Shown here one piece after another: positions 1,645-50,194 of a DNA stretch of 64,000 nucleotides; position 1 is the stretch's first letter; the number at the start of each line of letters is the position of its first letter. The notes under the pieces were generated by a model. The model saw only the letters and a program-made list of their open reading frames with translations. It made no database searches and had not been told where the DNA came from. The stretch comes from Cenococcum geophilum (taxonomy: Eukaryota): NCBI GenBank assembly GCA_050273025.1, contig CP158635.1, forward strand, positions 15,252,001-15,316,000. Reading direction: 5' to 3'. The translations under genes were made by a program, and so were the position numbers.

Positions 1645-2109
1645 GTAACACTAATAATCTATAGGGGTCCTTTTTAGGACGTAGTGTGGCGTTCCTGCAA
1701 TAGTTATAGCGTCTTAGCGTAATGTCTAATACGCATAGCCTCTTTTATGTAGTATAATTATTATATAAAATATTATCCATTTAACTAAAGCCTCTTTCCT
1801 TGCCTAAAAAAAGGTAGCCGCTATAAAGTCGGCCGCTATAACTATGGGGATAGATTCGTCTAGGATTTTAAATATGCTTTTTAATTGTATTATATTACTT
1901 AAAATATTCGGGCAATTAATAAGCTAAAACCCATATATTAATCTTTATAGGTAACTTTATACTACTACCTTCCGCTTACGCGCGTAAGCGTAGTATCCGT
2001 CTTTAAACTATAATTTCCTTACTTATAATAAACCTTATATATAACGTAGACTTAGGAAATATAGTATAAGCTAATCCCTTTAAGGGAACCTCTGGTTCTT
2101 ATAATAGGG

Positions 2110-2760
2110 TTTTTATCTATAAATATGGTAGATATATGTGTTATCTTTATAGGGAACTACCTTAATATAAATAGACTTTATAAGTGCCTAGGAGAGATTA
2201 AAGAGGAAATTTTCGGTATAGTAGTTTTCTTTAGCCTTATTTATCTATTTTATATCACTAATATAAATAAACCAGTTTACCTACAGACGCCTTACTAAGT
2301 CGCCACCAATAGTGTTTTTATAAATTTTGCGAGTCTTATAGATAGGATAAGATTTCTTATTAAGTACCTTTTATATTAGCGCGTTAATCGCAGCGTCTTT
2401 ATAGTTGCTATCCTAAATTTTATCCCCAAATATATACGTAGATATAAGACGCTCCTACTTAACCTCTATCTTAATATCCTCTTCTATAAAGAATACTCTA
2501 GTATATAGCTAATAAATATACGCTAAGACAACGTGCGGATCGTCCTTTAGTAATAGAATAACGCGGTCCTAGACTTCCTTTTATTTTTGCTTAGTAGTAT
2601 TTATAAAAAATTATACAGATGCGTAAAGAACGTCTTAATAGATACAAAATTTTATAGGATTCTTTACTCCGATAGAAAGTGTTATTATATTAACCTTAAG
2701 CCTTATTCTTAGATTAGTATAGGTGTTTTATATATAATTTAAAGTAACTTACTTAGGAGC
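2110..2760 (-). pseudogene. BTB/POZ-domain protein, RIP-inactivated
   Basis: De-RIP reading gives roughly F.IHQDVLCASAQFF.NA.KQKWKE.QDRVI.LPKDDPHVV.AYIHWLY...YIFGDKIQD.NYKDAAIDAL, a typical fungal BTB pattern. Many TAA/TAG stops. Confidence 0.7.
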
Positions 2761-3369
2761 CTCTGTAGATAGCTTCCGTTAAAGTATATCTTTAAAAGAC
2801 GGAGCTAAAAGTATTATAATACTTGTTTATATATTATTAATATAGGGGTCTTAAGTTATCCCTTTATTAAGTAAATATTTAAGTAAGAATATTAAGAGAG
2901 TGCGGGACAGATTGTTAATTTATGGGATTTAGGTAGGAAAGATCTAAAATGCGAAAATCTTAGCGTTATGTTTACGTATAGCTGGCGGTTAAGGGTAACA
3001 ACTATATAGCTATTCTATAACTTACTATAAGCGTTTCCGCATATTCTTGTTTATATTTATTATTATAAGAAATTATATATAGTACGGCTTATAGGAGCTA
3101 GCAGAAAGGACGGCCGACGCGTACTAGCTATACTTTATAAGCCGCTACTATACCCTTATAATAACGACAGACTAAGAAAGTAGAGGAAAATTTATCTTGG
3201 ATATTCTTTTATATATATCCTGGTTATTTATTTACCTAGTTCCCGCTATAAGGCCGTCCGTGCGCACCTAAACGTAAAAAAAGAAGCACTAACCTAGAGG
3301 AAGTCGCGAGGCTTATTACGAACCTAAAAGAGACTATAAACAGCGTTATTATAGAGTAGGGTAGTATTA

Positions 3370-4036
3370 GTAGTAACTCTTTGATTAACGTCTGATACGG
3401 ATCCTACTGGCCCACGCAGACTACTCCGTCACAGGGGGAAAACTTGTGTATTTACAGGAAGAAAACCCTGCAGTTGGGTTGGGGGAGGAAAAACCCTATG
3501 AGCCACCTCAGTAGGATGAAAAACCCCGATTTGCCATATCCGTCCGTAGCAGCGGCCCTGCGGGCCTACGGCTACATCCTGTCCTCCTTAGATGTCTTGA
3601 ACTCCTTGGGAACCACTGCTTCCTTCTCTCCAGCTTATCCTAAGCTGAGGTTCACTACGTCCCAGCTAGGCCTTGCCAGTTGATCGATCGCTGTGCCTTA
3701 TCGTCGTTTCCCGTATTTTGACCGTCCCCTGTGTGCTATCTCTTGTTAACCATTGCCATATACGCCATGCCTTCCCCCCCCTAGGGCCTATCGAAGGCGT
3801 AAGGGGGATTCATCCATAAACTACCACTATACTAAGAGGCGAGCAGGACGTGTGTGTGTATGCCTGGGTATCTTTTGTGCCTAGGCCCCAGTTGCTAGGC
3901 CCTCGCCAAGGGTCACCACTCCTTGAGAGGAGACAGGAAAACCGTACGGTATTGTCCAGGCTGCCAGGTAGTATTTGGTAGTTGATAGCGAGTGACCGCA
4001 TGCTCCGCGGGCGATCGCCCTGGGGGTTAGGAGGGA
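3370..4036. mobile_element. GC-rich unclassified insertion between 13-bp direct repeats
   Basis: Abrupt GC-rich island in RIPped DNA. TAGGGTAGTATTA occurs at 3357-3369 and 4037-4049. Confidence 0.4.
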
Positions 4037-4059: not shown

Positions 4060-4960
4060 TAAAGCTAACCTTATAGGGATTAAATTGGAATAGGGAAGCC
4101 TTAAGACTTAAAATACTAAACTCTAAGAGAAGATCCGTTCCCTCCGAACGTAGCTTAACACTTTTTTAGCATTGCCCCCATTAATATAATTATGGGCGTT
4201 AGTAGCGGCTAGCGGAGGCGTAAGAGGATTAGGAATAACTCTCTTGCGAGTAATAAGTACTAGGAGCCTAAATAAGAAGCCTAACCGCTAGCTAGTAGTT
4301 AATGTCAGATAAGTAAGAGAAGAAGTATTAGAGAAGGTAGTGACGACTTAAACAAGGAAGCTAAAGGGTAATAGCTCTTTAGCCCTACCTTAAGTATTAT
4401 AAAAGGGAATAGATATAATATTGTTTGTTATATATAAGGTATATACCAAAATTATAGGCTTAATTATATTGGCGCTTAGGTTATCTAAAACGTAGTCTAT
4501 TGATAATATTTGGTATATTAAAAATGCGCTTATATATTTATAAAAGTTAAATAGAATTCTAATAATATAGAACTTAAAATTAGCTAAATTTAGTATAAAT
4601 TTATATATTAGCTGTACTAATTTAGCTAAAACTTTGTCTACTAATTTTATTAAAGCTTTAATTATCTTCAAAAAGCGTAATAAGTTTAGGAGCTTAGGTA
4701 AAGATTTTCTTATTAGTTGGTGAGAGTCTTAAAGGTGCGTCTATAAAGCTTAAAGGCGGCGTAATATGCTAATATTTTCCTTAAGGAGGCTGCGTAGTAG
4801 ATATAACCGTATATTGTGCCACGGGAAGGTCCGCATTGTAAAGTTAAGCGGTAGTATTTGCGAGAACTGGTTAAGGTTCCGTAGGCTTTATTTAACTTAA
4901 ACAGCCAAATAGTACGCAATAGCGTTAGTAGGGACTGTGGCTATATACCGCTACCACGCT
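4060..4960 (-). pseudogene. Uncharacterised RIPped gene divergent from the NLR, paralogous to 10660-11750
   Basis: The reverse complement of about 4650-4880 aligns with about 10740-10960 (QHITPP.S..APS..S.TDEK.FTQAP-like peptide). Confidence 0.4.
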
Positions 4961-5029
4961 ATACTTAAGAGTGTTAGTTTTTACGCCAACTAGTTACCCG
5001 TTTACTCTATATTCTCTATTCCTTAATTT

Positions 5030-6192
5030 TAAAAAGTATACCCTTAATAAAGGTTTAGTTAGTATAGCTTAGCTACCCTCCCTACTAGCAAAGGCGAGCT
5101 TAAAGTATTTTACGCTTTAATCCCTTATTATAAACACCGCTAATTATACTGTCGTTAAACCTATTCTGTGCTAAGTTAAAATACGGGCGTTAGTAGAAGG
5201 TAGCCCTATAGCTAAGCATATAGTAAAACTACTTAGACTTACCTTAGGCAGCAGTTTTAGCAGTAAGCTTTACCTAAAATAGTTAAACGCTATACTTAGA
5301 CGGCTATATAGATAGTATGCCATTATAGCCTACTATAATATTTTATATAGTAAAGTATCTTATATAAATTAGTTTATTTCTTTAGTCGCCCTAGCTCTAA
5401 TTAAGTACCTCTACTATAATAAAAAGCACTAAACTATTTTTAATTTAGTAAGAGAAGGAAGATTAGGCCTTAGTATATATTTAATAAAATAACTAGTAGC
5501 GTCTTACCCTGTACGCATTTTTATATACGCTTATTAATAGTAAGGTAGTATATAGGTACTTAGTAAGCTATAGCTAAGGGCACTCCTATTTATAACTTCT
5601 TTTATACTTTCTAATACGCTCTTTATTTTTAAACTAAGCCTTATCTTAAAAGCGCTAGGCTTTATAATAAGCTATAAATATATACTATAATTTATAAAAC
5701 TATATATATAGCGGCAATTTCTATAGTTATAGCGCCCTATTTTTAGCTGGCAATCGTTTTAATATAGGTAGTGATAATATATACTTTATAAGTCTAGGTA
5801 TTATAAGTAATTAAGCCGGCCTTTATTATATTATATTAAGGCTAACTTTTAGTATATAAGATAGCTGTAAACGACAATACTAATAATTAATGCTTAAGCG
5901 CTTAGCGTTTAACTAACCTATAAGAGGATAAAGATTAAATTTTAAGTAGTAAAGATCCTTTACTTAAAGGCTTATATATATAAATCCTCTACAATTAAGC
6001 CTTTATATAGTAGTGGAATAATAATAAGTCCCGTATTTTATAGATATATAGTAATCTAGGTAAGGGCAAGACAATAATAATAATAGCTTTTATTAACGAG
6101 ATATTACGGCGGCTTTAGTTAAGCCCTAGGTTAGGGATTTTATTATACTTCTTTTGCTAGAATATAATCTAGGAACTAAATAATGTAGTTTT
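5030..6192. repeat. Inverted duplication, arm 1 (NLR upstream region and N-terminus); partner at about 9456-10615
   Basis: Near-colinear reverse-complement match over about 1.15 kb, differing mostly by transitions. Confidence 0.9.
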
Positions 6193-7960
6193 AATTATTT
6201 AAGGCCTTACCTACCTCCTAGCTACGCTAAATCTAATATAACCTAGTATCTATGGAAGAGGTATAATAAAACCAACAGCCACTCTTTTAAGGGGTTTAAT
6301 ATACTCTATAGCCTTTAGAGAACGCTTTTAAAAATAGTATAGGATTTAAGTTATCTAAGAGTCTACTTAATAGTTAATACTTTTAACGAGTGCAATTCCT
6401 AGTCGCTTAAGGCCTTTCTAAAACTACTTAGCTACTCTAAATTGTTAAGTAAAGTCAAGTAGGTAGTAACTAGCCGTAACGAGACAAAAATTAATAAATA
6501 TCTTTAATATAGCTACCTTAGCCATAATATAAGCCTAGAGTTAAACTTATCCTATATTTTAGAAGTTGCTTCTTTTATTAATTATAAGGTTAACGATTTA
6601 GCTACCTAAAAGAACTATAGAAGTGGGCTCTAGAGTTTTATTAAAGAGTATCTTACTAAGTATACAGATGGAACCTTTCTATAGGTAGCTTTAGTCTATA
6701 AAGAACTTAAGAAAGTACTAGTATAGAGAACTCTAGATATCTATATAAAGTTCCTAATAGGACTAGAGCCTCTCTACTAGCGAATATTAAAGTAAATTTA
6801 GTATAATAGAGATCTGGAAGAGGTAGAAGTCTACCTATAAATTCTTCGCACAATTACGCTCTTCTATTGTCCTCTATACCTTAATAAAATAGGAATTATT
6901 GCCGGCTTTTTAGAAGATCTTAGTAATAACTTATAAGCTTTGCAAGATCTAGTTAGCTCTTATAGTTCTTTCTTAACGCTTTATAAGCCAATCGTCTACT
7001 TTGTCTATTAGTTGGCAAAGGACTACTTTAGCGTTAGTAATAGCTTAAACCTCTTTCTATTAGGGCAGACTAAGGCGTATAGCCTACTAGCTAATTAATC
7101 GCTGTGGCTTATATCAAACTCTCTAAGAAAAGATATCTGCGGTTTATAGAGGCTAGGCACCCTTATATAAAAGGTAGATAATAATATAGTAGGCCGTTAT
7201 ATTCCCACACACGTTTAGTATATATATTACTACTAGGTACACCATCTAAAAGAGAGTAAAAGTCCCCTTAAAGACAATAAATAGGTTTATATATGCCTTT
7301 AAGAGCACTTCTATATTAGCTTAAAGCTCTTAGTTTAATAAGGAAGATCTCTAATAAGGCTATTATAGTAAGACTATTAGAAAAAATGCTTACCGTAAAT
7401 AATTAATTCTGCTAAGCTGCAGTGCTAATAGCTAATTTAGTAAAATAAAAGCATAATACAAATTCGCTTCTACTAGTGATCATTCGTAATATAAAACGCT
7501 TTATTCTCTGTTTTGGGTCAATCATTAAAAACGCTCCTCTGCAGACATATAGCGCTGCTCTTACATTTAGTCCACTAAAAAGTGAAATTAGGAAACAGTT
7601 CTGGAATCACAGACATCCGCTAATTAAACGTGTCCTGCACGTAGAAGAAACCTAGAATTCAGCGCGCGGCACGCTTAAGGGCATTCGGATTCGGTCTGGT
7701 CGGTCGCATTCTCGCCAGACGGCCAGCTGGTTAAGACAGATAGTAGAGCATTAGATATTCGTTCTCTTCTCTTTAGTACTGTTTCTTATTCTTCAAATTA
7801 TTTATATACCCTCTTTGTAGCAAACGACTGGGTAATTAGGGAGGAGAAAAATATCCTTTAGCTTCCTTTTAATTATTATAAGACTTATACAGCCGTGCGG
7901 AACAGTATTTTTATCTTAGGACACTTATCTAGAGGTGTTTTATTCTTCGAATTAAAGTGA
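5674..7960 (+). pseudogene. NACHT-WD40 NLR (HET-E/HNWD-like), RIP-inactivated
   Basis: Walker A region ILWIHGNPGKGKTMMM near 6040-6080. FFCQ, Walker B YLIVD.FDEC, KWVVTSR, ADGTFLWVALVCKEL and VYFVHQSAKDY motifs follow. One WD remnant HSDSVWSVAFSPDGQLV lies near 7682-7730, then a C-terminal ILWLP motif. Confidence 0.88.
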
Positions 7961-8278: not shown

Positions 8279-9455
8279 AGGGGGCTGCGCTACGGGGGCT
8301 GCTTTATAGTAAATTATAGAGCTGCGTAGAGCTTTATAGAGTTATATATAGGCGTTATATAGGCGTTTATTCGGGCGATCGTATAGACGTTATAGAGCCG
8401 CTCGTAGAGACGATTATACGGCGATTAATTGTATAGGCGTTTATATAACCGATTATAAAGCCTTTCTAGTATATTAGTGCTGTATATTAGTAGAGCTTTA
8501 GACAGTGTAGCTAATAGGCAGCGTTTAGCGAGTAATAACGCTATTTGCTAATTAACTATAGCTAATTATATATATACGCTGACTATAAAGCTAATAGCGC
8601 GCTTATCCTAATTAGGTAAATTAGATAGATCTACTAGAGCTATGGGGTTAAAATTCTAGATTTTTGGCAGCACCTCCGTATATATAAATATTAATATTAT
8701 CTAATTTTAGATCTACTCTATTTAACCTTAAATAGTATCTAAATATCTTTAGATTCGATTAGTACGCCGCAGAGGCTTTAAAGTAGGTATTTACACTAGT
8801 AGTGACGGCAGTAGTAAGGATTTAGGTTAGGTAGTTAAGCGGGCTCTCTTTTAAAGTTAGACTCTATTAAGGAATAAGCTTTAGTAAACTTACCTATTTT
8901 AGCTAATATTTCTACTGCTATCTTTAACTTATAACCAGTTAGGTTAGTGTTTAAATTTATTAGCTAAGGCGTAGCTAAGGCGCCGTTAAAGCTAATATAG
9001 TTAATTAAGCTGCTTATAGAAGGTCTTTAAGAAGCTACTACTTCTAATATTAATCTGCTTTAATTGTGTCGGCTATAAGCTTATTACGCTTATTAGTAGC
9101 GATCTTTTTAGTTTAACTAAAAGCTTATTTATAGGCGGAGCTTATTACTAGTATAGAAAATAGATCTAGAGCGATCTTGGTAAGGATTAGATAGAGTATT
9201 TAACCGGTTATAAGCTACTAATTAAGAGAATCTAGAACGACGTTATTTACCTTACTGCCGTTTTTATTATAGATCTTAGTAAGTTTAAGGCCTACGTTAT
9301 AGTAGCGATTAAGCTCCGTAGTAAGCTTAATTTACTTCTATAAGTGTAAGGAAATAAGGTCCTTATTAACTAGTAAAGACTATAGATATTTATCGCTTAA
9401 ATCGTCGTTAGTTAGGAATATATAGCCGTAGTTCTAGCTAGCTAGTAGAGGATTT
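8279..9455 (-). mobile_element. hAT transposon 3' fragment, RIPped and truncated
   Basis: About 9040-9260 on the minus strand de-RIPs to LDWW...YPILTKIALDLFSIPAMSSACEQAFS...RNKL.ADTIEA, the hAT dimerisation domain. The terminus near 8279 is tentative. Confidence 0.75.
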
Positions 9456-10615
9456 AAACTATATTATTTAGTTTCTAGATTATATTTTAGCAGATAAAAT
9501 ATAACAGGATCCCTAACCTAGGGCTTAACTAAAGCCGCCATAATATCTCGTTAATAAGAGCTATTATTATTATCGTCTTACTCTTACCTGGATTACTATA
9601 TATCTATAAAATATAGGACCTCTTATTATTCTACTACTATATAAAGGCTTAATTGTAGAGGATTTATATATATAAGCCTTTAAGCAAAGGATCTTTGCTA
9701 CTTAAAATTCGGTCTTTATCCTCTTATAGATTAGTTAAACGCTAGGTACTTAAGTATTAATTATTAGCACCGCTGTCTATAGCTATCTTATATACTAAAA
9801 GTTAGCCTTAATATAATATAATAAAAGCCGGCTTAATTACTTATAATACCTAGACTTATAAAGTATATATTACTACCACCTATATTAAAACGATTGCCAG
9901 CTAGAAGTGGGGCGCTATAACTATAAAAATCGCCGCTGTATATATAGTTTTATAGATTATAGTATATATTTATAGCTTATTATAAAGCCTAGCGCTACTA
10001 AAATAAGGCTTAGTTTAAAAATAAAGAGTATATTAAAAAGTATAAAAGAAGTTATAAGTAGGAGTGCCCTTAGCTATGGCTTACTAAGTACCTATATACT
10101 ACCTTACTATTAATAAGTATATATAGAAATGCGTAGAAGGTAAGACGCTACTAGTTATTTTATTAAATATATACTAAGGCCTAATCTTCCTTCTCTTACC
10201 AAATTAAAAATAGTTTAGTGCTTTTTACTATAATAGTGGTGCTTAATTAGAGCTAGGGCAACTAAAGAGATAAACTAATTTATATAAGATACTTTACTAT
10301 ATAAAACATTATAGTAGGCTATAATAGCACACTATCTATATAGCCGTCTAAGTATAGCGTTTAACTATTTTAGGTAAAGCTTACTGCTAAAACTGCTGCC
10401 TAAGGTAAGTCTAAGTAGTTTTACTATACGCTTAGCTATAGGGCTACCTTCTACTAACGCCCGTATTTTAACTTAGCACAGAATAGGTTTAACGGTAGTA
10501 TAATTAGCGGTGTTTATAATAAGGGGTTAAAGCGTAAAATACTTTAAGCTCGCCCCTACTAGTAGGGAAGGTAGCTAAATTATACTAACTAGACCCTTGT
10601 TAAGGGTCTACTTCC
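9456..10615 (-). pseudogene. Second, truncated copy of the NACHT NLR 5' region (inverted duplication, arm 2)
   Basis: Reverse complement of 5030-6192. It breaks just after the FFCQ-equivalent motif and joins hAT sequence. Confidence 0.85.
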
Positions 10616-10659
10616 TAGGAAACTATAGTTAGTATTATCTTAAGTATGGCGTTATAGCG

Positions 10660-11750
10660 GTAATGCGCTGCCTCCGTTGCTCGTTGTTTGGCTTAGCGTA
10701 GTTACTAAGTTAACTAAAAATATACCGAAACCCCTAAACCCTAACCAATCCTCGAGATAACTACTATTTAACTTTAGGATATAGCCTATCTTATACTATA
10801 ATATACGGCTTTATTTATATCACAGCCTCCTTTAAAAGAATTTTAGTATATTATACCGCCTTTAGGCTTTATAGGCGCGCTTTTAGCGCCTCTGTTAACT
10901 AATGAGAAAGCCTTTACCTAGGCTCCCTAAGTTATCGCGCTTCTTAGAGATATAATAATTAAAATCTATAGACACCCTTTTAGCTTATATAATAAAATTA
11001 AGTGTTAGCTTAGGCAAGATAAGTTACTATTTAGGTTTATTAAGGATAAAATATAGTATATAGCCTCTGGCGGGGAAGAGGTACTAGCTAATAATACTAG
11101 TTGGATAAATATAACTATAATAGCAGAAGGGATTAACTTATTGTTTATATACCTACTTAGCTATACTAAAGTAGAGCGCTTTTAAGCTTCTATATAAATA
11201 AAGGCTTTATAGCGATAGGTAGAAGAGCTAGATAAAGGGCGGTATCTAGAGCGTATATATTTATTATCTCGCTGCCAAATTAGCAGTTTATGCTATACGA
11301 GCTTGCTTAGAGGTATATTTTAGGCACTATCCTCTTAACAAAGGTATTTATAGCGAAAATATCCTCTTAGGACGCCCTATTAAGCCTATAGTAGAATAAC
11401 CCCTACTTTATTTTATTTATAGAATACTATTACTTTTGCTACGTTTTAGATATTAACTTATAGATAGTATTATAAAAGGATCTATATTTACTAGTTAGTA
11501 ATACCTATAAGGCTACTACTTAATATCTTAAAGCCTTACTATAAGCACTTTAAAATGGAATAGTTTAAATATCTAAGTGCATTTTCTTACTATATGCAGC
11601 TGTTTTTATATATCTTTACTGTTAATATATCTATACTAATATATATAAATCCAGCCTTATTTAAGTAGAGATAAGTATTAATAGTTTATATACCTACTAA
11701 AGTCTACTTTCCTTAGCTCTGTTCTATACTAATAGCTTTAAGAAAGATTA
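10660..11750 (+). pseudogene. Uncharacterised RIPped gene, paralogue of 4060-4960
   Basis: Similar to the minus-strand gene at about 4.6-4.9 kb. A de-RIP LIV.MPTQLH-like motif lies near 11135-11165. Confidence 0.35.
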
Positions 11751-13350
11751 CTCTATAAAAGGCTATAAAACTATAAATTTCTATAAAAGAAGGTCTAGTA
11801 TTCTGCCTTAAATTTATATAATTATTCCTTACTATCTATAGAAAGCAGCTAACTCGTCTCTAAAGGTATATTATGTATATTTAGGAAACACTCTTATATA
11901 GTTACGATTACTTTTACTCTAATAAATGCACGCGTAAGTATAATACGGCTAAATAAAATAGTATATAGTGTACGGAAAATAATTTAAATAATATCTAGAA
12001 TATAAGGACATTATAGGGTATATATAGCTATGATTTAGAGTATAGGACGCCAGAATTAATAGAATAAGCCTTTTAAAGTTAGAAGTGCCCGACGTAATAC
12101 TTTTTATTTATAGTTATAAATATAGCTAAGTTAAATAAAACCTTAGTCTCTTTCTAAATTCCTCTAGCCTTAAATAGAAAAATTTAAGAATATTATTTTT
12201 TAACCCCATTTCTTAAATTACTATATATCTATAATTAGCGCTTTATTATATTATTCTAGCTAATATCTCCTACCTCTAATAGACATTTTCCCTTCTTAGG
12301 CTTTAAACGGTTCTTTCTTAACTTAGTATTATTAGCTAAATATCTATTAGAGAAGCCTTTAAATAAAAGTACTTATAGCGGCTTTAAATTCTTACTAGAT
12401 ATCCCGGGAGGTACTAGCGTTTACCATTTATATATAAATAGGGTAATCTCTAGGTTTATATCCACGCTAGTCTTTAATATATCTAAAAGGAACCTCTAGC
12501 TTTAGTTAGTATTTATAAATTACTTTTAGTTAGTTATTAATACGCCCTAAGAGTTTTATATCTTTAAGAGTATATACTATAAGTATATCACTTTAGAGGC
12601 GCAATTATAGAAGTTGGAGATATATATCCTCGCCAGGCTTAAAGTAATTAAGTAGTATTATAATATTTATAAGACTATACATTGTAGTAAAATAGCGAGG
12701 CTTATTCCCTTTTTTATTAAGTATAGCAGTTAGACTAGAAATAAGGCCGTTAAGCGCTGTGTTAAGATTAGGGCTAATATAAATAATGGTAACTAGAGTA
12801 AGCGTAAAGATAAGACAAGAATGCCTATTAAGAAGATATTCTAGATTTATTTAGACTTAAGATACTATAAAAGTAATTAGGCGGAGCGGAGAGTTATTAA
12901 TAGAATTTCCTATTGCTTAAATAATTAGTATTACTGCTTAACTTAGGGCCGAGCGCTAGAGAGGAGGTAATAATGTTAAGAAGGTTTAGGGGATTAAGTA
13001 GACCTTAAAAATTAAGTATTTAATTTTAGGCGTTAAACAAAAGACCTTTTTTAGATTAGTTAGATGCTCCTTTAATTATTGCTTATTATAAGGAGTAAGG
13101 TATATATTTTATTATCCTAGCCCTATACGCAGTGTAGCGCAGTATAGGCACTTAGCTTAGTATTGCCTTAGGCGTATAAAGCCTTATACTTTACCGTGTC
13201 TCTAATCTTTTATTCTTTTACTACTATCTACACTATTTATAGTTCCTTTATAGTAATTATACTAGAAAATAAAGGTAGAGATAGGCAATTAAAATTAGTT
13301 CTTTTAGGATTAAGAGTTTAGGTTATACAACCTCTCTAACTCCTTTAATA

Positions 13351-15699
13351 ACCTAGACCTTTCACCACACATGCAACCTTACTAAAAGGTAGCGCTGCAC
13401 TTCCAAACTTACGCATACCCATCTTACTATCAAAAACAATCGATTTTCCAACTCTCAAGACCCAATTCCTACTGCCTACTAAGCTAGAGGTGGATTTGTT
13501 TACCCTTTTACCCCCTTTATCCGAAGAGAAAATTCTTCTAAGGGTGGTCCTAGCTTATAAGTGAGGCAGGGGTAGGAATACGAAAACTATCAAACATAGA
13601 CTTTTCCTAGATTTTTCTTCTATAGAAAGTAAAAGCCTAATAAAATTAGGGGTGTAGGTACTTTTCTATATCTCTTTTAGTCAGATTTTCTTTAAAGAAG
13701 AGAAGGATTGCGTTTAGGGCTTTTCTACTAGTAAAAGCCTAACAAGTCCTTTTTTTTAGTAGTTTTTTCTACTTCTAATAGAAAAAGAAAATAACTATAC
13801 GAGTCTTTTTTAGCTAGTTTTTCTGCTACCTTTAACCCAATCTCCCTAGAAATCTTCTAGTAGGATTAGTAAGGAGAAAGGGCGTAAAAGGATAGTAAAA
13901 ACTAGCAAGGCTTTTTGCCTAGTTTTTTACCTTTAGGACTAGGAGATAAGAGACCTAAGGAGGTTATTATCTACTAAAAAAACTAGGAGACCCCCCCTAT
14001 AAGATACAAAATGCCAAGGCCTAATGGGTCTAAAAAAATACCTCCTATAGAAATAAGTGATAAAGGGTCTACATCTACCTTTTCTCCCCCTTCTCCTTCT
14101 CCTAGCCTATTTAGGACAGGAGAAAAAAGAGGACATCCTTAGTCTTCTCCTAAAAAAGAAAACTAAAAACCTATAAAAAAGACAATAAAACTAATAACTA
14201 CTACGGATAGAATACCTAGTATACCTTTTCCTCCCCTCTCTCCAGAACAACACCTATAAAAGGCTTTAGAAAGCCTACTCCAGGCCTATATAGGGCTAAA
14301 AAAAAGAAGAAGAAAAAGAAAAAGAACAAGTTAAAAGGATAGGGAACTATATACGGAGTATCTTAGTAAGAGGAGATCCCTTTACAAAAGAAGAAATAGA
14401 AAAAGATGTCCTAAAAGAACTAGTTGAAGAAGTAAGAGTTCTCCGTAAGGAGGTAGCCCCTACTAAAGAAACCTACGCAGAGAGGCTAAAGAAGGGCCTC
14501 CTTACTTCGTCCTCTTTACCCTTATCACTACCGTCTCCTACCCCCTCTACTTCTACTAAAAGTAAGAAAAAGCAGTTATAAGAAATAAAGCTAGTCCTAA
14601 TTATAGACCAAAAGGACCAACTTCTAAATACCTTCTCTATAAGAAATAAAGTCAATTAACTATTTTCATCGAAACTGCAAGTAGAAAAACCCGTTTTAGC
14701 ATCTATAGCTAGAACTAAAGGAAAATAAAATATCCTCCTCATAACTATAGAAGAGTATAATATAGATTTCTTAGTTAAGTATAAGGAGATCTAGCATAAC
14801 TGCTTTACCTTTTAAAGAGAACAAAAACTAGAACTATGGGTTTAAATTATAGCCAATGGGGTTCCTACCCTACCTTTCTTAAGAGAAGGAGGCTCTAAGC
14901 TTCTAAAGGAAGAAATTAAGACCTTTAATCCTATAAGGATATAAGGACTACCTAAATAGATCTTATTTAGTAAAAAAAGACATAATCCACAGACTAGATT
15001 TAGCTCTATAGTTTTTACTATAGAGAACGAAGAAAAAAGACAAGAAATTCTTAAATAAAAAGAGATATCAATTGCAGGTACAGCTACTAAGGTAGTAAAA
15101 TACCTAGAAGTCTCTCCTACTACGCAGTATACTAGCTGCCAAAAATTTGGCTATATAGGAGATAGGTGCTCTACCAGGGCCTGCAGATTCTATGCGGCTG
15201 TATATTTATCTAAAGACCACATCTGTCCTACCTGTATAATAATAGGCAAATCTTATAAGCATACTACTCCTCTTTGCATTAATTGTAAAGAAAAACACTT
15301 TACTAATAGTAAAGACTGCGAGACTCTTAAAGCAGCTAAACTAGTACGTAGTACTAGTGTAGAAAGTTCTATGGAAGAATAAAACAAATAATATCTTAGA
15401 AGGAGGCAACTCCTATTAGGCTCTTAAAAGGTTAATAGAGAGCAAAAGGATAGGGATAGGTGTTAGGATTTCTTATAGTTTTTCCTACCGTTTTTTTATT
15501 CCCTAGTAGTTGCAGTAACTTAGTTTACTAAGGAACTATAAACTCCTAGTTTAGGGGTTTATAAACTACTAGGATATAGCTATTAGTATATATTAAGCTA
15601 TATAGAAAGGATTCATATATATAGAACTATAGCGCCATAGCCTAGAGGCTGCATGCGCAGTATTATACGTAGTGTAATACAACGGATTTAAAAAAAAAA
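13351..15699 (+). mobile_element. LINE (Tad-like) element carrying only ORF1, with poly(A) tail and 13-bp TSD
   Basis: TSD AACTCCTTTAATA at 13338-13350 and 15700-15712. Poly(A) at about 15690-15700. ORF1 has zinc knuckles. No room for endonuclease/RT. Confidence 0.85.
14011..15382 (+). pseudogene. LINE ORF1 gag-like nucleic-acid-binding protein
   Basis: ATG at 14011. C-terminal de-RIP C.SCQKFGH.GDRC, CRFCAA.HLSKDHIC and CINCKEKHF.NSKDC knuckles. RIP stops and frameshifts. Confidence 0.8.
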
Positions 15700-17535: not shown

Positions 17536-17569
17536 TAATTCGATCAATCGATCGAATCGTTTATAGTGT

Positions 17570-35232: not shown

Positions 35233-35311
35233 ATTTTATGCGATAATAAAGAAGAAGAAGGCGACTGAAAATTTATTTGGGGTATGCCAAGACTTATCGC
35301 GATAAGATTTA

Positions 35312-35673
35312 GGGGGTGTTCGGTTGCAAAACCGTCAGATTGAATCTGAACTGAAAGTCCGGCAGAAAGAACGCGTCCCTTCCTAATTTGTCACGCGTCT
35401 GTGGCTTTGTAATCGCACGGACGTGTGCAATCTGAAGCCTTCATATTGAAATGGAATCTGACCTGGAGCTTCGAGCTCCAGATTGAAATGACGCCAAGAG
35501 CTCCATTTCAGAAGCTGTATACGGTAAAGTTGCCAATATTTTAGCGTACTATTCTGGCGTTTTGCGAGCGGTGAGAGGAACGTCAAATTTTTGAGGCTGT
35601 GCAGACGAAATCACTCCGAATCAACGGATTCTGAACTGAATCTGAGGCCTCCAGATTGCAACCGAACACCCCC
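35312..35673. mobile_element. PIF/Harbinger (Tourist-like) MITE
   Basis: TIR GGGGGTGTTCGGTTGCAA and TTGCAACCGAACACCCCC. 3-bp TSD TTA at 35309-11 and 35674-76. Confidence 0.9.
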
Positions 35674-37299: not shown

Positions 37300-39650
37300 C
37301 CTTAGAACTTGACTGTCCCCTAGTTAAACATCCTATACCTCCTGCGGAGCCTGCTACGGAGCCTACTACGGCGCCTGTTATAGGTCAATGGCTGACCTGG
37401 TCGAGCGTCCGTCTCTAAGACCGTCTCTAAGGATTAGACGATTTATTCTTCTTCCTAACTTTAGCTGTCTTATCCGTAGGCTGTGACCTAATCTGGATGT
37501 AATCTCCCGGTCGTATATTCCTCTCCTGCGGCTGTGCCTGCTGCTGTTCAACGGCTGTCCTGGTTGTACGGCTGTCTCTAAGGGTTAAGTAAGTCTGCGG
37601 ACGTTGCTGGCTGGGCGTTACTAAGTCCGTGGGCCGTACTTAATAGCAGTTCTCCCAGTTCGTCCATATTTCGTTACTATTCTATAATACTCCTCCGTTA
37701 TGGAAAGCAGTAAAATCCGTTCGTACTATTAGGGCCCATTACTGCGTCTATCCTTGTCCTTCCCTTTTCTAATTTATAGCTAGGTCTATTCCTTAGTACG
37801 TATAGAGCCAGTCCTTAATACCCTTTAGTTGTCCTTTATTGCCGAGCTATGGAAGTATAGGTCCAGGCCGATTACGCGTCCCCGCTACTAGCCTCCCTTA
37901 ATTAGACAGATGTACAAATCCTCGCTAAATAAGATCCTTTAAGCCTTAATATTTGTGCTCGGTGAAACGGTGACTTCCTCCGCATCTAAAACAGGTCTGC
38001 AGGCCTTGTCCTCGCTGACCCCGTGCGTCCTATTGCGGCCGTCTAAAGGCGGTAGAACCTTGCGGATATTAAGGGTCCTGCGGATATTGAGAGTCCTGCG
38101 GAGGTTGAGAATCTTGCGGGATAAAGGGAGCTCGGGCGCTATTCTGCTAGTCTTCGTGTCCTGGTGCTGGCTTATATCCTTGTGCTAGGCCTTGAACTGC
38201 AGCTTGATTTATGGTAGGCGACTGCTGCTGCACTAGGGCTCCTCCGTGTACACCTGGTCTAACTAGGTTAAGAAGTCTTCCTTTTCTTCTGCGACTAATC
38301 TCGTTCCTTTGCTGCCGTAGCTCTTATATAAGCTAGATATTTAGGGCGTCTTCTTCTAGAAGGACATCCATTCGCTTGGCGCCCTCTATAGCCATCATCC
38401 TTAACTTTATAGCCTCCTTTAGTCTTTCAAACATAAGGGTACTAGGCTCGTCTGCTACGGCCCCTGTCTTTTCTATTACGTGCTTACGGTATTTAATAGG
38501 AAGTCCTTGCACAAACCATCGCCCCTTCTCTTGCTTAGTAAGGTTTCCTGCGGCTACCGCTTTGGCTAAAATGGTAGTAAAGTCCTACACGTAATGACGT
38601 AAGTTGCCTGGCTATTCCGCAGATTTTTAAATAAAAGCTTCCACAAAGTCTCTTATCTCTATGCGTCGGTAGTAGTCCTCGGCTTAATATTTGGCTCGGA
38701 GTTTAGTCACTAGTTGGCTCCAGTCGTCCTGTTTGAATTCCGGCATTATCTAAATAGCTTCCGCGTACGTGTCCTCGCAATAGTTAGGGAGACACGCGAG
38801 CCTGCGGTCTTCGCCTACGTAGTACCTTTAACACATGCCCTCGTAGGCCTTAATAAACCTAGAGATGTTCTTTCCGTTAAACCGTGGAACCCCTTGCCTA
38901 AAAGGATCTGGTATTGCTACCGTTGGAACGAATACGTGGCGTACTTCCCTTGCTGCCTGAGGTGAGGGTGTCCTAGATGGCTGTCCTAGTGGTACTTTAG
39001 TACGTACATGCTACGGCTAGTCCACTTGTATATCTGCGTCCCTAACGGAAGGCACCTGCTTCTTAACGCCTGAGGGGGGGTCTCCCTAGGAGAGCACTGC
39101 CACCGAGTCTTGATGCGTTTGTCCGTTTCGGCCTGCTGTCGTTCTGTGTGGTAGGGTGCTGCTAAGCCTTACGCTTCTGTATATATCTACTTCTTAACGG
39201 AACGCCTCTTAAGCCGCCGCTGATATAATCCGGATGACTTGAAAGAAGATAAAGCTAAGCCAGAATAGGAAGCTTTTAAGGATAGACCCAATCTCGTATG
39301 CTTGCGACCTTACTCAGTATTGTGTCCTTTGTTCTTAAAGGGCAGTGCTGACTTCCTCTGCCGCCAGTTTCTATCTAATTAACTGGCTCTTGGCTACCTG
39401 TCGTCGTCTTTGTATCTTTAATAAAGCTCTGGCCATGCTTGTGCGCGCGCGGGTGGTGAGATATCGGGTAACTTTGACTGCCGGTCGACGTCGTCTGATT
39501 GGCTCGCTGGTTCGCTTGACGTCCTTTACGTAACTTTCCGAGACCTTTACCACCCCTTTTTGCCTTTCGTTGCCACTCTTTGGCCTATGCGTTGAGTCTA
39601 ATGTCCGTCTTTTCCGCTGTCTTTCTGTTTAGGGACTACCTGGTTCCCCT
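37300..39650 (-). pseudogene. gag-like ORF of LTR family B
   Basis: PDPF.QGVPRFNGKNIS.FI.AYEGMC motif, and a knuckle-like CFRCGGSHRFTEHK(C) near 37950-37995. RIP stops. Confidence 0.7.
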
Positions 39651-40100
39651 TGCTGTCCGATACTACCTGGTTCTCTGCTTCCGTCTCGTCTATCTGGCTG
39701 GTCGTTTTTCTACAGCTATCCGTTTCTCTACAGCTAGTTATTCTTCTGTAGTCGTAGTATATTCCTACGTGTCTCCTGTATATAGAGTTGTGTATAGAGT
39801 GCCAGACTTCTAATCCAAAGAGCTTGCCGTCGTCCCCACGTAGAATGCCATATGTGGTGGTGGACGCGGTCCCTCTTAGATTGGAAGTCACAATGCTGTC
39901 TGTCTGTCGGTCGGTCGGTCGTTAGTCGTAATCAATCAGTAGGAAAGCAGTCAGTAAGAAGAAAGGAAAGAATGTATTCCGGTAGGTCGTCGTGATGGAG
40001 AGAAGGAGAGAAGCCGAAGGCTTAATATATACAGGAAAATGCCAAGGCACTAAGTAGTGGCCCATTTTACCCCACCACACTACTATAAGGTTCCGTTATA

Positions 40101-42266
40101 ACCCTAGTATTATAAACCTTTCCGCTGCTTAACTACTGCTATTTAGCGCTAGCTGTAGTAATCTTCTTTATAACCTTATCTGACTTAACTCCTTAGTTAA
40201 TTCTGTTAACTTTAATATTAAACAGTTTACCCCTTTCCTAAAAATAGTTCTTAATCGCGAATCTAATAAGGACGTTTGGAGTAATACTATTGCCACCGTA
40301 ATAGAGTTTACGCCTCCTTTCTAACCGCTGCCATTCTATATTTAATAAACCCCACATTAACGTAATATAAGTAGCTTCGCCAACTTATCTAAATATAGGA
40401 AATATATAAATAATGTTCTAAAGGGGGAGCTAGGCCCTCTTTATATAGGAATTCCTAGCTTATATAAAGCATTCTTTAAGGAAGTAGAAGGTCTTAAAGA
40501 GGCAAACGCCGCCGTTTTTAAGAAATGCAAGGAAGGGGACAATCTACTATACACTAAGGACAGCTGGTGTAACTGGCTTAAAGGCGCGAAAAAACGTAGA
40601 GTCCTAAAGTAGTTTAATAAGCTAATTATATTATTTCTAGACTTTATAAAGGAGTATCGGTTCGTTTTAAAGGCACGATAAAGACTAGTAATATATACTT
40701 AGCAGCCTTTATAAGGATTTACGGCCGGCCAAAAGCTAGATATCGGCTTTGTAGATAATTTAATAGCCGGCGAAAGCTCTTAATATTATTAGTTGTATAT
40801 ACTTATACTAGGAGAGCTAAAGAGTAATCTAAATACTAATATAGCCTTAAAAGCATGGTTCAATTTAGGGAAATACGTAAGGGAAGTATTTACCGCTTAA
40901 GACAATCGTCGCTTTATTCTAAACTTTACCCTTTATAGATCTATTATGCGGTTATAGGAGTATAACTAGGTAAAAGGCGTTATATTATTACTATTTAATA
41001 TTAATAAAGAAGTATTATAATTTACCTTAGCAATGTTAGGATTTCTCTAAATAAATAAGGAGCAGCTTAGGTTTAACCCTACTATTTTAATATTAGACGG
41101 CAAACGGTATATTAAAATTGTATATAATAACCAGACTAAGCGTCTTACCCTTAATAAGCTTATAAAGTGGGTACGCTGTATTGCTAGTTAAGCAACTACT
41201 TACTAGAAAGTATACCGTAAAGGAACACCTAATATACCCCTTATTATTAAAAACTTATAGCAGTACCTAGAGTTGCGAAGGAGAAGGTAAACTACTATAT
41301 AAGATATTAGAGAAGAAAGTAGTTAACGTAGCCAGGTACTATTAGCATAAAACTATTCGCGTAAGTGAATAAGATAATAATATCTTTAATATCTATAAGG
41401 GGCTAGATATTATAAAAGTAATAAACTATAAGCTAGAAGGCTTAATAATGCCTTTAAGACTAGCTAAAGTGCAAGGAAGTATAAGAAAAGGTTAAAGTTT
41501 TAGCAGAAAGAGGTTTTCTAGCTATAGCGCCCTATTACCGTCCAGTAAGCGCCTATATTTAACCTCTTTAACTAAGCGCCCTATTATATAGAATCGCGTA
41601 TACTAATCTGTTATTACTAGTGACTATAAAAAGCCTCTTTATAAGGCAAGCTCTTCGGCTATAATACTTACTATACTAAAGGGTAGTTTTAAAGAATATA
41701 AGTCTTTATATATGTAGGCCGGCATTATCTAATATAATATTTTAATAGGAAACCTTATAATAAACGAGGAAGATAACAATTATTCTTAGCTAGTATTCTT
41801 AATTAACTTTAATCTCACAATTAAAGAGAAGTAAGAAGGACCTTTAGAAGTACGGGGTAAGACTAGTATAAGAGTGTTTATAGCTATAGGAGTGCTTCTA
41901 GGCGAGAAATACTCCTTTAGGTATAATCTAGAGTTGTTCTTCTAGGTGCTTTTTTAGATATGCGTACACTATAATGGGCTAGGTAAAGATATTAGTCTAA
42001 CTAAGTTTAAGCGTTAAAACTATAAGAATACTACTAAGTTAACTAAGTTAAAATTAGGGCTAGTAAATAGGGAAGGGTATTTTCTTAACCGTATAGCTAA
42101 GGCATTTATACCTTACTACCAGCTGCTAGTCCTATAGGTTAATAAGCTATAAAAGGTAGTTTTCCTAATAGATAGGAAATAGAAGAAGGAAGATAGGGGG
42201 CTTTATTCTTAGATAAAAGAAATTCTTTAGCAAGTATAGAAGTATTTAAAGGTGCTAGTAGAGTAG
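40101..42266 (+). pseudogene. FunK1 (Pkinase_fungal) kinase, main body, RIPped
   Basis: De-RIP KLDIGFV, H.LIPGELKSNP, YVREVF.AQDNRRF, GRATTCWKAY, DIS.GNLM, FLIDFDL, KTGTRVFMAIGVLLGEKHSFRHDLESFFWVLFWIC. Confidence 0.88.
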
Positions 42267-42559
42267 ATAGAATAACATTTTATTACCTTATACTCTTCTA
42301 CTATACGAGTTAAAGGTTTGTAGAGATTTGGGCGGCTAGGGCTCGGTAATAGCCTTGGTTAAAACGTATATAAAATAGTATAGAGTAAATAAACCTGGGA
42401 AAGCGGATAATCTAATCTTCCGCTAAATTATTAGGTCTCTATACCCTACTATCTTATATAGGCTTTATATTTCTATAAAATATAATCTACTCTCTAGCCT
42501 ATTAGAAGGCGCCTTTTGCTGCCTAAATAGAGGCTATAAAAGAATTAATTCCTTCCTTT

Positions 42560-43469: not shown

Positions 43470-45849
43470 TTCCTTATACGCTAAGGTAAGGGCTGCTCCT
43501 ATGGCATTTTTAATCTGCGAAATATAAATAATTTAGCATAAAAATTCTTTACTAGAACTTTAGTATTCCTATCTATTAGCTATTAAGCTCCCGTTATGCT
43601 AATTCCTTAAGCTTTTTATAACTAAATCTTACCCTACTAGTAACTGCCTTTATTAGGAAACTGGCCTAAAGGCCCCGTCTCGTATTAGCGCCTAAGGGAG
43701 GGTATTTTATAGCTATACGTATTCTGCTTTATATTACGTCGTTAAAGTCTTTTATATAATTAGTAATAAGGATTATAATTCCTTTATAGTATTTAAGTTT
43801 CTATAGAAAAATTAAAGTTAGGTTATTGCCTATATAATTTAAATAATTGTTGCTTTATAAATACGTTAACTTTATTTAATAAAAGTATAGTATTTTAATA
43901 GCTGGCTAGCCGGAAAGTGTAAGAAAGCAAAAATTTAACCTCCTTTATATTAGTGGCTAGGTCCCCACTAAATAACTAGAAGAGTTAGGCAAGTAGTAGC
44001 AGTTTAAATAAGTAGGGTATACCGTGTAAAGCGGCTTTTATAGCTCTTTTAAAAGTCTTTTTATAGTTAAGGTCTTTCTAACTTTAGGAGGACTACTAAT
44101 ACTCTATATTAGTTTTCTCTAAGTATAAAGTAGAACGGAGCTCGTACTATAGTAGTATAATTAAACTACGTCCTTTACCTAGTATAAAATTATTAAACTA
44201 AGCCCTATTTGCGTAAGAAGCTATAAGAGCCTAAATAAGCTTCTTCCAGTCCTTTAGGATAGCAAGATTTTAAAAAAAGAGGGCATTTTACTTAATATTG
44301 CTAATATTGTTAACAGCAAACTCTACTATAGGATATTAAATTAGCTTTATAGTTTTTTTAGCTCGTAAATCTAGGAACTTATACTAGAGCTTATTATTAA
44401 GACTAAACCCTAATATAGTTAGGCTGTAAATAAGTAAGTTCTTATATTTTAACTTAGTAGGCTCCTTGCTATTACTCTTAACTTTATTAAGTTTTTTCTT
44501 AGCCGGTTCGCCAAAACAAATCGTCTAAATATTATTGGTTTGGTATTTTCGCTACTTATTAATGCTAGGTTTAGCGTAGTTTAGATTATTCCCTTAGAAA
44601 AGTACCGGGTTAACTATAACCTAACTATTAATAGACAATCTAAAGGGCTTTCCTTTCTCTATATAAAAGGCTTTGCCTTTATACTATTGGTGGTGCGTCC
44701 CTATTAATAAAATTAATTTATAACCGCTATTAGTAAGTTCTCGCTTCTCCTTCTTTATATTAGGGTGATATTTAAGGGGAAAATATACAAGGCTGTATAT
44801 TAGCTTCAATCCCTAAAACTTCTAAATGGCGGCTGCGGTTATAGCTTTACCAAATTTTTTACTATTAAAATCTAGATACTAACCTTAAATGCGGAAATAT
44901 TTATCTCCTTTATCGTCCTCTTTTACTTCGCCTAAGTTAAATCTCGTGCATCTATGCTTCTTAGTGCTATAGTATTTCCTATATACTAATTTATTCGACT
45001 TAAAAAGAGTCTAAAGTAGATTAAATGTAATTTCTCTGCTATCTTATAGCGATTTAAGGCGCTGTTTTATTAAGATATATGCATCCCTAATATAGTTCAC
45101 TAAGAGGTTAAAGTGGGTGCTGTTCTCTAGGGCTCCCTTATAAGCTTCTAGCTTAGAAAGGAAGTAGTATAATATATTCCACTCTATTTAGTCTTAAGTT
45201 AGCAGCCAATCTAGGGCCCAATAGATAGGGTTTTATACCGTAGGTTTGTCTTCCTTAAGGAAAGTTCTATTTACACCTTTTAGAACGGACCTAAGTATAT
45301 CCTATAGGCCTTTAGACTTAATATTAATAAGGTACATTATACGTTTAGTCTTCTTATCTATTATTTTACCATTAGTAATATAAATCTAGTAGCTATTTTC
45401 GTGCTTACTAATATATATAAATAACAATTATATATTCATTATATGCGTCTACCTTAGAAGGTACTATAAAGGATTTAACTATCTTATATTTTAAGGTTGT
45501 ATTATTCTAGCTATATACGGCAAATTAACTAGGGTTATACTTTCGGTTTAGTAGGGATATACATTTTATTAACTATTTTATACTCTACCTTTAAAGCTTA
45601 GGCTCTTGGTTTTTAATGTTAGAAACTGTCTATAGCTTAAGGCTTAGTAGCCTTAGGAGAGTTTATAGCGCTAGGTATTGCTTTTACTGCCTTTAATACG
45701 CCTTTAAGCAGCTCTATAAGGTAAAGTATAGTAACTAAGTCTAAGGGCGGTATAACTGGGCTAGAAAGAGGCGTTTATAGACTTTTATAGCTAGGAGGGG
45801 TATCTAGAGACACCTTATACGGCTTTATAGTCTTAGGCTAGTTTAACAT
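43470..45849 (-). pseudogene. AAA+ ATPase (fungal family with long N-terminal domain), RIPped
   Basis: De-RIP ITFDLLWTLFK, YLDFD.KKFG, FDDF.PGKGR.LI.LLH / GPP.VGKTLTAE (Walker A), ILLLDEVDVF (Walker B), FDDAIQSRI. Confidence 0.82.
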
Positions 45850-48800
45850 TATTGCTTTATAAAGCTTTGGTAACGTAGTGCTAAATTAAAGTATAAAATT
45901 GGTAATGAGCTAAGTGTATAGAGTAAGGAGCTAAGTGTAGAGAAAATTGGTAGTATTAATTCTTAAATAAGATCCGCCCTTTTTATACCTAGCGATGCGA
46001 TATACTATATAAATGCTTTCCCCTATTTATCCTAGGAGACGCTATGTTATATATATTAACATTAGTTCCGATATAGTAAAGGACCGAGTAAATATTATAC
46101 GATCTTGCCTTAACTATAGAAATAGAGCTAAGACCTATATTTAGGAGCTTAGCGGATCTTATACCACGGTTATATTCTTACCATCGCTGCGGAGGTATCG
46201 CGAGGGCTTATATACGGGATTCTTATTCTAACTATTAGAGTTATACCAAAACTAATATAACTGCATTGGTTTATATACGGTAGTAAAGGTAGATATTATA
46301 AATTAAGGGAAAGAGATACGTATATAGTATTAGATGCGCCTTTTAAACAAGAGAATATTTAAATAAGCCCCTATTAAATATAAGCGATATTACTAAGCCC
46401 TATACTGCCCCGCACTTTAAGCTATTAAATTAGGCCAAGGATTTTAGAGAGATATACGGGCAAAATAGAACAGGTAATAGAAATTATTGCATTAGAATAT
46501 AGCCGCGGTCAGTTTAAACTTAGGTTCCCGCTATATGGTCCAGTCCGGTCTAGTTGCATTTTTATTTTACCTTAGTCTTATTCTTTTTTTATCTTATCTA
46601 GTCCGCTTCTATTAGCTCCTATGCCATTTTAGCCTTATTCGTTCGTTTTTAATTCTGCTATATCCTTAAAGTCTATTAAATTAAATGACTGGTTAATCGA
46701 ATAACTTAAGAAAGAAAGAGCGGCATTTAATAACGATACGTACCCATTACTGTTATACTAAATTAATGCGTTTAGATCGTGTTATGATTTACTATAAGAG
46801 GATATAGTATCCCTAGCGGAGCGGTTAAAATAAAGTTATAGTAAGAGGCTATAAGCACGCACTTTTTTAACGGATATCTTCCTAGGCGTAGGACCTAAAG
46901 TGTTCCTATTATATATCTTAGCAATACCTATCTTAAAGTTATATAAAATAACGCTAAAGGGCCTCCTTCTAAAACTTTAAAGTTGGTGGAAGTCTGCCTC
47001 GCGCCTATAAGGACTAATAGCGGTTATAATAGAACTTTGTAAGGCTAATTTAATTAGCACCTTAATTTCCTTATCTTAGAAACGTTAGTTTTTAAAGATT
47101 ACTTTTACCACTAGTAGACAAACTCTTTTATCTTAAATAACTTTATTACTAATTCTTAATAGAGTAAGGCCTATTATAAAGCACATATACTCCTTTATTA
47201 GAGAGTTACTTACTAGGCCTTAATATAGATCTAGACCTAGGAATTACACCTACTTAGACTCTGCAAACTACGTATACCTAAGTTATATACTAAACACTAG
47301 GTATATATAACTCCTCCACTCTTAATAACTAATTATTTATTTGTAGTAGAGCAAGACTTAGCGTAAAAAGAAAGCGCTCTTATATTAGATATATAAAAGA
47401 CAAATTGTTTAAGAACCTCGTCCCCAAACTTTAATAATAGCGTATTTAAAGATAGATGCCTTATTAGATTCTTGTTCTAACGCTACGTTAGTTTTAAACC
47501 TTAAATTTATAGATTTATTTAGCTTCCTATAGTAATATAAGGCTAGCTACCCGAACTTATAAATAACATATCTGTATATTGGTGTGCCGTTACTATTTTA
47601 TTAACATTAACTTGGAACCGACTCTTAGATTAAGCGTAAAAGTGGAATTCTCTCTTTAATTAAGTGAGGCGTTACTTTAATATATGCTTGCTTTAAGAAC
47701 TATAGCGGTAAAAGTACTAGATAGAAGGACTACTAAATAGCCTATAAGTTTTACTAGGCCCTATAATAACGATAATAAAACTAGTACCCTTATTTAGACC
47801 TATAACTACGTTCCTTATTAGGTTACTAAAGACTCTAACAGCCTTACTAGCGCTATGTTTCTTAATAAGGATTATATAAACTAACGAGTCCACTATCTTA
47901 AAGTCTATGCTAATTGTCTTAGGGTTTATAACAAGATCTACTTTAAACTAGATAGTATTTAGCAAAAATATATTCCTATAAGCCCTATAATTATCTTACT
48001 AATTATATAGCCTTCTCCTTAAGCTTATAATTATCTTACGCGATATTATCTACCAGCGTTATTTAACTTGCCCTAGCTATAATTAGGGCCCTTATATAGT
48101 CTAGCGTAAGGCAGGATAATATATATTTAGAAAATAGTGCCCTATTATATAAAGGCCGTCTAAGATTAGATTAAGGTCTTTGTTAATAGTATACGAGATT
48201 TAATAAGGGGGTAGGTCTCTTAGCGCGCGCTTAGTAAAATCCTATGGTAATAATTTAAGGTAATAATTGCAAGGCTTAGTTAAGGGGAAGAAGCGTTTAT
48301 ACATAAAAATGCATCTTCTACTAAGGGGAGGGCTTGGTTGGGGGTATCCTCTAGGTAAAAGGAGGCGAGAACGTATATATGCTTACTAAAAGTACTGCCT
48401 ATAAAATAAGTAACTATATAATTGCTATAAGGATAAAAAGTTGCTTATATACAATTTACCTTAAAGTTTTAGAGGTATTATTAAGCTAATAAAATTTTAG
48501 AGAAAAGGGGCTATTTACGTAAAGCTAAAAAAGTTAAGTTAATTAAAATAAAGAGGGCCTATATACTATATAGCAAACTATAAAGTATACATAATATTTA
48601 AAAGAATATATAAGTAGAAGCGTATAGCACGAGAAGGCGAAATATGCCTTATTTAAAGTGATACTAGCTATAAACGTTAATACCCAACTTATATAATGGC
48701 TATCCCTTTAGCTTTTAGTGGAGTGGATATTATATACCTAATAGCTAAGGGTTAAGCGCCAGACTGTTAGATGCGGCTCACCCTAGCCTATAGTATTAGT

Positions 48801-49225
48801 GTTAGTTAATATAAGCAGCTCTTGCTTACCGACTGCAAATAATAGCTTTTACTTAGCCTTTTAACCTTTTTATAGATATTTGTGGCTAACTTTTATTTAA
48901 TAAGGCGAACTAGTAGGTAATAAGTGCCTATATATAGCTAGTTTAGGACTATCCTAATTACGATTTGGGTATTAAACACACTAAAGGTTAGGTTTAAGAT
49001 CGCTACCATAAACTTAATCCCTAAAAGGAGTCCAGTTAAAGAAAATAGAAAACCTAAAAAATTAATTATAGCTTTATCCCTAAAGATAGATAACTCCCCT
49101 AGATGGCTATACTTTAGTTATCTCCTACATTAAATCTATTCTTACTAGACCCTCTGCGCCTAATCGCCTTAATACTTCTCCTTATCTATAGTACTTCTAG
49201 GCTTATATAGAAACTCTTATACTAA

Positions 49226-50190: not shown

Positions 50191-50194
50191 ATAG

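Follow-up and report, generated by a model that had tools for sequence, protein, structure and literature searches.

The RIP-erased genes in the left part of this window are very probably cargo from the distal part of a derelict Starship, one copy in a high-copy family, as judged from sequence comparisons. The window is the whole stretch analysed, 64,000 nucleotides at C1:15252001-15316000 of a fungal genome of 178 Mb in seven contigs (G000; C1–C7). A sequence-only reading had seen there a RIP-erased block of BTB, NLR, HeLo-like, FunK1, and AAA+ genes at 1645..49225, close to the intact gene NNR1, and had proposed that the block was once multicopy, for example a Starship whose captain lay outside the window or had been deleted. 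A captain does lie outside, 122 kb upstream, with its 5' part missing. The cargo is likewise real; the element, however, measures ~175 kb rather than 48 kb and has lost both true ends.

AT-rich DNA with a positive RIP index runs from position 1 to ~52 kb and gives way to normal sequence at NNR1 and SHO1. The composite RIP index exceeded 0.4 in all but two of the 1-kb bins of 1–53 kb, a stretch with a GC content of mostly 0.28–0.35, and was negative across NNR1 and SHO1. When aligned with a lightly mutated copy, the FunK1/AAA region showed 1,016 C>T/G>A changes and 85 others (44 reverse changes and 41 transversions; 5,912 aligned bases). The corresponding counts were 204 versus 15 for the BTB region and 390 versus 82 for the NLR region, and CpA and CpG were the main contexts of the C>T/G>A changes. 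This one-way excess was confined to duplicated DNA, the pattern of a RIP target, and the spectra together with the index bear out the proposed erasure of the block. The features of the window are as follows.

1..1644, minus strand: end of a nested LTR retrotransposon (Gypsy-type, by eye); the putative Starship goes on 122 kb leftward to the captain.
1645..2034, minus strand: multicopy cargo fragment; the C3 copy has it, as do copies headed by another captain lineage.
1929..3181, minus strand: RIP-erased BTB gene region, for which a single further copy was found, intact, at C1:3123213.
3368..4035, no strand: many-copy repeat, probably solo-LTR-like.
4348..5650, minus strand: paralogue, in inverted orientation, of the first part of the unnamed cargo gene at 10.6 kb.
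5034-6195: inverted copy of 9452-10613 (inverted duplication, 93% identical).
5651..7731, plus strand: RIP-erased NLR with a short Gly/Asn-rich N terminus, NACHT, and one WD40 repeat left.
8573..9414, minus strand: nested hAT transposon fragment.
9452..10613, minus strand: matching arm of the inverted duplication, with the start of NACHT; the 44.5-kb extra insert has its right edge here.
10618..13269, plus strand: family core cargo without a Pfam name, at 20 or more other loci at 79–90%.
13270..15758, no strand: nested insertion, missing from the C5 and C2 copies.
15759..16961, minus strand: family core cargo with a HeLo-like PF17111 domain at ~16253-16741.
16962..19189, no strand: nested minisatellite-bearing repeat, also at unrelated loci.
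19190..23762, no strand: family core cargo and two small nested inserts (19383-19808, 20096-20445).
23763..40102, no strand: transposon nest (Gypsy-type LTR element, second LTR element, hAT with zf-BED).
40292..42280, plus strand: RIP-erased FunK1 kinase; the C3 copy has an intact 799-codon frame.
43900..45400, minus strand: RIP-erased DUF7025-AAA+ ATPase (limits approximate; DUF7025 at ~44762-45058).
46150..49226, no strand: family core cargo without a Pfam name, cut by a transposon at 49226, with ~9 kb to the family right end missing.
49227..52684, no strand: transposon debris replacing the right end.
52685..54033, minus strand: host DNA resumes with NNR1 (YjeF_N), unmutated and 96% identical to a relative's contig, L111.

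The Gypsy-type labels come from translations read by eye. The earlier limits, 1645 and 49225, are not element ends: 1645 and 49226 are transposon junctions, the former being the end of a retrotransposon LTR. Several copies stop at 49226, which had been considered as the right terminus; it was ruled out because copies continue beyond it, eight of eight others carrying on into sequence missing from the window. The stretch 52470-52680, also considered as a terminus, reads as a solo LTR. Host DNA resumes at 52685 with an unmutated NNR1.

All five gene types named from the letters are present. The Pfam scan covered the window outside 21600-23760 and most transposon nests. With stops read as X, the window's own frames matched FunK1 (PF17667, E 1.5e-29 and 1.9e-22), DUF7025 (E 1.2e-19), and PF17111 (E 7.7e-10), the last of which we take to be the former Helo_like_N; NPHP3_N and WD40 were matched weakly. 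BTB, NACHT, and AAA had no Pfam match in these frames. Because the frames of 1645-13500 are nearly blank in Pfam (three weak matches in 18 frames), less mutated copies were used for naming: intact paralogues matched NACHT (E 8.6e-12), AAA (E 1.6e-7), and BTB (E 0.0026, below the cut-off). Two stretches tried as a HeLo-like gene, 4400-5000 and 8500-9400, were rejected and proved to be the paralogue of the unnamed cargo gene and a piece of hAT element, respectively. Non-TE DNA in the block came to ~24 kb (16.7 kb of core and ~7 kb more, an estimate based on block limits), near the ~25 kb of cellular-type DNA given by the sequence-only reading.

The intact NLR paralogue at C4:3732249 (L086:4832-9821, C4:3.73 Mb) has 11 WD40 matches (L086:8010-9821), and one remains in the window (7662-7731). 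It stands head to head with a PNP_UDP gene, and a Gly/Asn-rich motif is common to the NLR N terminus and the C terminus of the PNP_UDP enzyme (~14 of 31 residues by eye), a pair that, by sequence, resembles an amyloid-signalling pair. The NLR motif was also considered as a PUASM and does not fit the pattern published in the accessible text of PMC9815663. The window NLR keeps a RIPed form of the motif (5651-5800), and its partner PNP_UDP gene is absent. Near a further NLR copy at C2:7756857-7770130 lies an inverted partial duplicate of its own start; the piece at C2:7768450 is RIPed.

The block is multicopy, as had been proposed, with its core at 20 or more loci genome-wide. Window 10.5–13.3 kb matched at least 20 other loci at 79–90% (39 of 2,202 candidates scored), 40.1–49.2 kb matched at least 33 pieces of at least 1.5 kb at 79–90% (28 of 1,493 candidates scored), and the middle core had at least 65 matches (40 of 320 candidates scored). 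Once nested inserts are subtracted, 10618-49226 amounts to 16.7 kb, and the copies at C5:14.25 Mb and C2:14.76 Mb are collinear with it; in a copy at C1:5.19 Mb, 23762 is joined directly to 40103 without the transposon nest. FunK1, DUF7025-AAA, and HeLo-like genes form the core cargo of the family; BTB and NLR lie outside the core in an extra 44.5-kb insert. The least mutated copy is C3:7967953-8046467 (L089-L097), 78,515 bp long with both ends present; besides FunK1, it carries a Myb gene and other kinases, and a single TAA falls in its captain match. A 10-kb stretch within the C5 copy, C5:14214265-14224700, also occurs in elements headed by a second captain lineage, suggesting that the lineages exchanged cargo or became nested.

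Genome-wide, the DUF3435 profile (PF11917) gave at least 165 matches, nearly all with TAA/TAG stops, and none of the matches listed falls in the window (100 of 341 candidates scored), in keeping with the sequence-only reading, which had recognised no DUF3435 there. The captain lies at G000:C1:15130062-15131573, on the same strand as the cargo, with a PF11917 match at C1:15130201 (E 1.2e-29). This captain is 5'-truncated, RIPed, and 89% identical to that of the C5 copy. The RIP block begins at C1:15130062, directly preceded by intact host genes for an MFS protein and a transcription factor (TF); the captain is the first feature past the TF gene, the position of DUF3435 as the first 5' gene of a Starship. 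The 5' truncation was considered as a subfamily mark and rejected: of three candidate captains, two matched, and both of these have their start elsewhere. Among the DUF3723 matches listed for the element search (85 of 174 candidates scored), none falls in the element; genome-wide there are at least 86 matches, nearly all with RIP-type stops.

Two core blocks that adjoin each other in the C5 copy are separated at this locus by 44.5 kb of extra DNA. This insert, which ends at window 10617, carries the BTB gene and the NLR besides an intact HET-ankyrin gene and an inverted duplication of 1.16 kb. It is quite possible, though somewhat short of an even chance, that the locus is a composite of two or more nested or recombined Starships and that a second element brought in the BTB/NLR/HET insert, which would then not have been captured into the first, an origin compatible with the main reading. 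The insert is missing from the C5 copy at a clean join, its pieces are in inverted order relative to the C3 copy, and a NACHT paralogue at C5:8.93 Mb adjoins the same cargo fragment. However, among the matches listed (100 of 341 candidates scored) no second captain lies in the insert, and the family end motif was not found in it.

The ends of the family could be defined from sister copies. A common left end was present at 12 distinct loci, always preceded by AC (TTAC at six, TAAC at four, CTAC and ATAC at one each), and a common right end finishing in TTTAC was present in 18 of 30 loci. The 78,515-bp C3 copy has an exact 15-bp terminal inverted repeat (TIR) and TTAC on both sides. What is left of the window's copy begins 1.42 kb in, at a TTTAC within the captain, and on the right it is cut by the transposon at 49226, ~9 kb short of the family right end; TTTAC is thus found on the left only, and the TIR is not kept in place. 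No direct repeats can be recognised for this copy, as neither of its true ends is preserved. The C3 copy is 78.5 kb long and the insert at this locus 174.6 kb, which is of giant size. We then took the 16 captains picked by DNA likeness to that of the C3 copy, a set outside the second, more numerous captain lineage and the divergent hits. Nine had a same-strand right-end match 49–126 kb downstream (random placement: mean 0.28, maximum 4 in 10,000).

The other seven captains had no right-end match within 200 kb, as might be expected if the upstream captain were a compact, cargo-less transposon and the window genes a separate nearby repeat or segmental duplication. The same cargo is also found behind captains of the second lineage, and long nested inserts, which differ between the two loci, part the captain from the first cargo block here and in the C5 copy. 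This explanation is nevertheless very unlikely, because block order is unbroken from the captain to 49226: the longest same-strand chain against the two-ended C5 copy comprises 28 blocks and 29.6 kb at 77–92% identity, and 16.7 kb of the window block falls within it. The captain tail runs directly into cargo in three of four further copies fetched, the fourth leading into unrelated DNA. In the C2 and C7 copies, the tail abuts cargo blocks that at this locus lie ~50–68 kb in, and in one C3 copy it reaches the sequence of window 15867 onward (the HeLo-like block) after <300 bp. Moreover, the right-end motif was absent from the 6–50 kb scanned past the captain in all six copies. These joins indicate that the cargo travels with the captain as one unit.

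An empty site beside NNR1, which the sequence-only reading had suggested seeking in other strains, was present in one of 20 metagenome contigs found via the TF protein. This contig, L111, lacks the whole insert: its left flank matched at 95% up to the same TTTAC, and 135 bp further on it continues with window 52685 onward through NNR1, so that the host flanks are 135 bp apart in L111 versus 174,618 bp in this genome. The host flanks show no mutation excess against L111. The L111 spacer has a GC content of 0.20 and carries a likeness of the family right end, and L111 may therefore be an emptied rather than a pristine allele. Among contigs of four other runs at the left junction, one reached 13 letters past TTTAC, too few to count, and the rest stopped at or before it. 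L110 departs from the match ~50 bp short of the junction, L112 and L114 (both more distant) have in common a flank unlike this one, and in L114 a HeLo gene comes next, with no NNR1 within 6.8 kb; these differences indicate that the TF–NNR1 neighbourhood is itself derived. Between NNR1 and SHO1, window 54034-59506 is a DNA transposon nest with inverted repeats (54025/55427, 55506/59431) that is missing from L111.

Within the dead element, the HET-ankyrin frame (C1:15220761-15223445; L080:8761 onward) is intact over 895 codons. The gene is single-copy (one match, one candidate) and unmutated to within ~300 bp of RIPed DNA. In the BTB region, 29–39% of C/G sites are changed, evenly in seven of seven bins, and the one partner in the genome is intact; we infer a lost or segregated BTB partner. 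That single-copy host genes were mutated merely through lying among transposons has next to no probability: BTB sits between repeats and its sole other copy is intact, but the core cargo has 20 or more copies, the BTB changes show no gradient, mutation in the HET island and in either host flank ceases no more than a few hundred bases from RIPed DNA, and the cargo genes are missing between TF and NNR1 in L111. Single-copy genes syntenic with NNR1–SHO1, which the sequence-only reading had named as the case for such leakage, are not what the locus holds. Leakage is, on these comparisons, refuted for the core. With the cargo multicopy, the single-copy HET gene unmutated, BTB evenly hit, and the host flanks clean, duplication rather than leakage accounts for the erasure, BTB being the weak spot.

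Captain–cargo linkage, sister ends, copy number, RIP spectrum, and the allele without the insert were combined with published Starship biology, from which the following steps are drawn. The captain tyrosine recombinase would have integrated the element, probably from a circle, at a TTTAC just behind the TF gene. RIP in sexual cycles would then have destroyed every part with a partner, since the family had tens of copies, and spared single-copy cargo. Nested transposons and the 44.5-kb extra cargo block (HET, BTB, NLR) would have enlarged the element to ~175 kb; the first 1.42 kb is gone, apparently by loss between a pair of TTTAC motifs, and the final ~9 kb presumably disappeared where the nested transposon sits at 49226.

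Directly ahead of the insertion TTTAC, a run of 28 bases agrees with the family right end at 24 of 28 positions here and at 21 of 28 in L111. This likeness is located in the ~50 bp where the lineage departs from L112 and L114, a lineage-specific synteny break, and none of the 12 other left ends has a right-end-like flank. It may be the scar of an older copy reused as a target. A more speculative and rather doubtful extension, against which those 12 left ends speak, is that old Starship right-end scars act as attB-like landing pads, where re-integration would recreate a circle-like right-end/left-end junction that the captain could cut again.

Starships degraded by RIP have been described as derelict or degraded (PMC11162782; 10.1101/2021.12.13.472469, Gluck-Thaler et al.). 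In the accessible text of these accounts (10.1101/2021.12.13.472469; PMC11162782, Gluck-Thaler and Vogan), Starships share with this family a 5' DUF3435 captain, cargo including NLR genes, direct repeats, TIRs, insertion into AT-rich DNA, and inactivation by RIP. They are called low-copy there, but for this lineage a single genome contains at least 16 captains and 18 right ends; of the auxiliary genes DUF3723, FRE, PLP, and NLR, NLR is present here, and none of the DUF3723 matches listed lies in the element. Hephaestus, as far as its accessible text goes (10.64898/2026.09.21.753150), has a TTAC-type junction as well. All 12 left junctions here have an invariant AC after variable bases, in agreement with the TT//AC crossover described for Hephaestus. 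Hephaestus is active and was shown to form circles, whereas mobility here is inferred from the copies and one empty allele. Tangerine, in the accessible part of 10.1101/2025.11.25.690456, resembles this element in its short TIRs and in that nested RIPed transposons make up over half of it, and a putative degraded copy has one intact gene amid RIP, like HET here. It differs in having few copies, DUF3723 and PLP, and clean ends against an empty site, whereas the window's copy lost both ends. A search for Starship with FunK1 found no literature in a collection lacking most subscription journals, so the family is not thereby shown to be undescribed; in a search for Starship with Cenococcum, the accessible text of PMC12910237 had 'Starship' only in its reference list.

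Degraded Starships are thus a known kind, to which this locus adds high copy number, defined ends, an empty allele, a surviving HET gene, and a right-end likeness at the target. Gene-based tools would overlook this many-copy family, for which ends, a junction motif, and core cargo are now available. If right-end scars do serve as landing pads, they would account for the lost first 1.42 kb, and such sites would be rearrangement hubs. The locus is also a natural control for RIP, with duplicated cargo dead and the single-copy HET gene intact in the same element, which indicates that Starship cargo can outlive its carrier. An ORF-less, AT-rich block of 175 kb between two host genes probably began as one Starship insertion and then gathered other transposons; in this way, Starships can seed large RIP regions.
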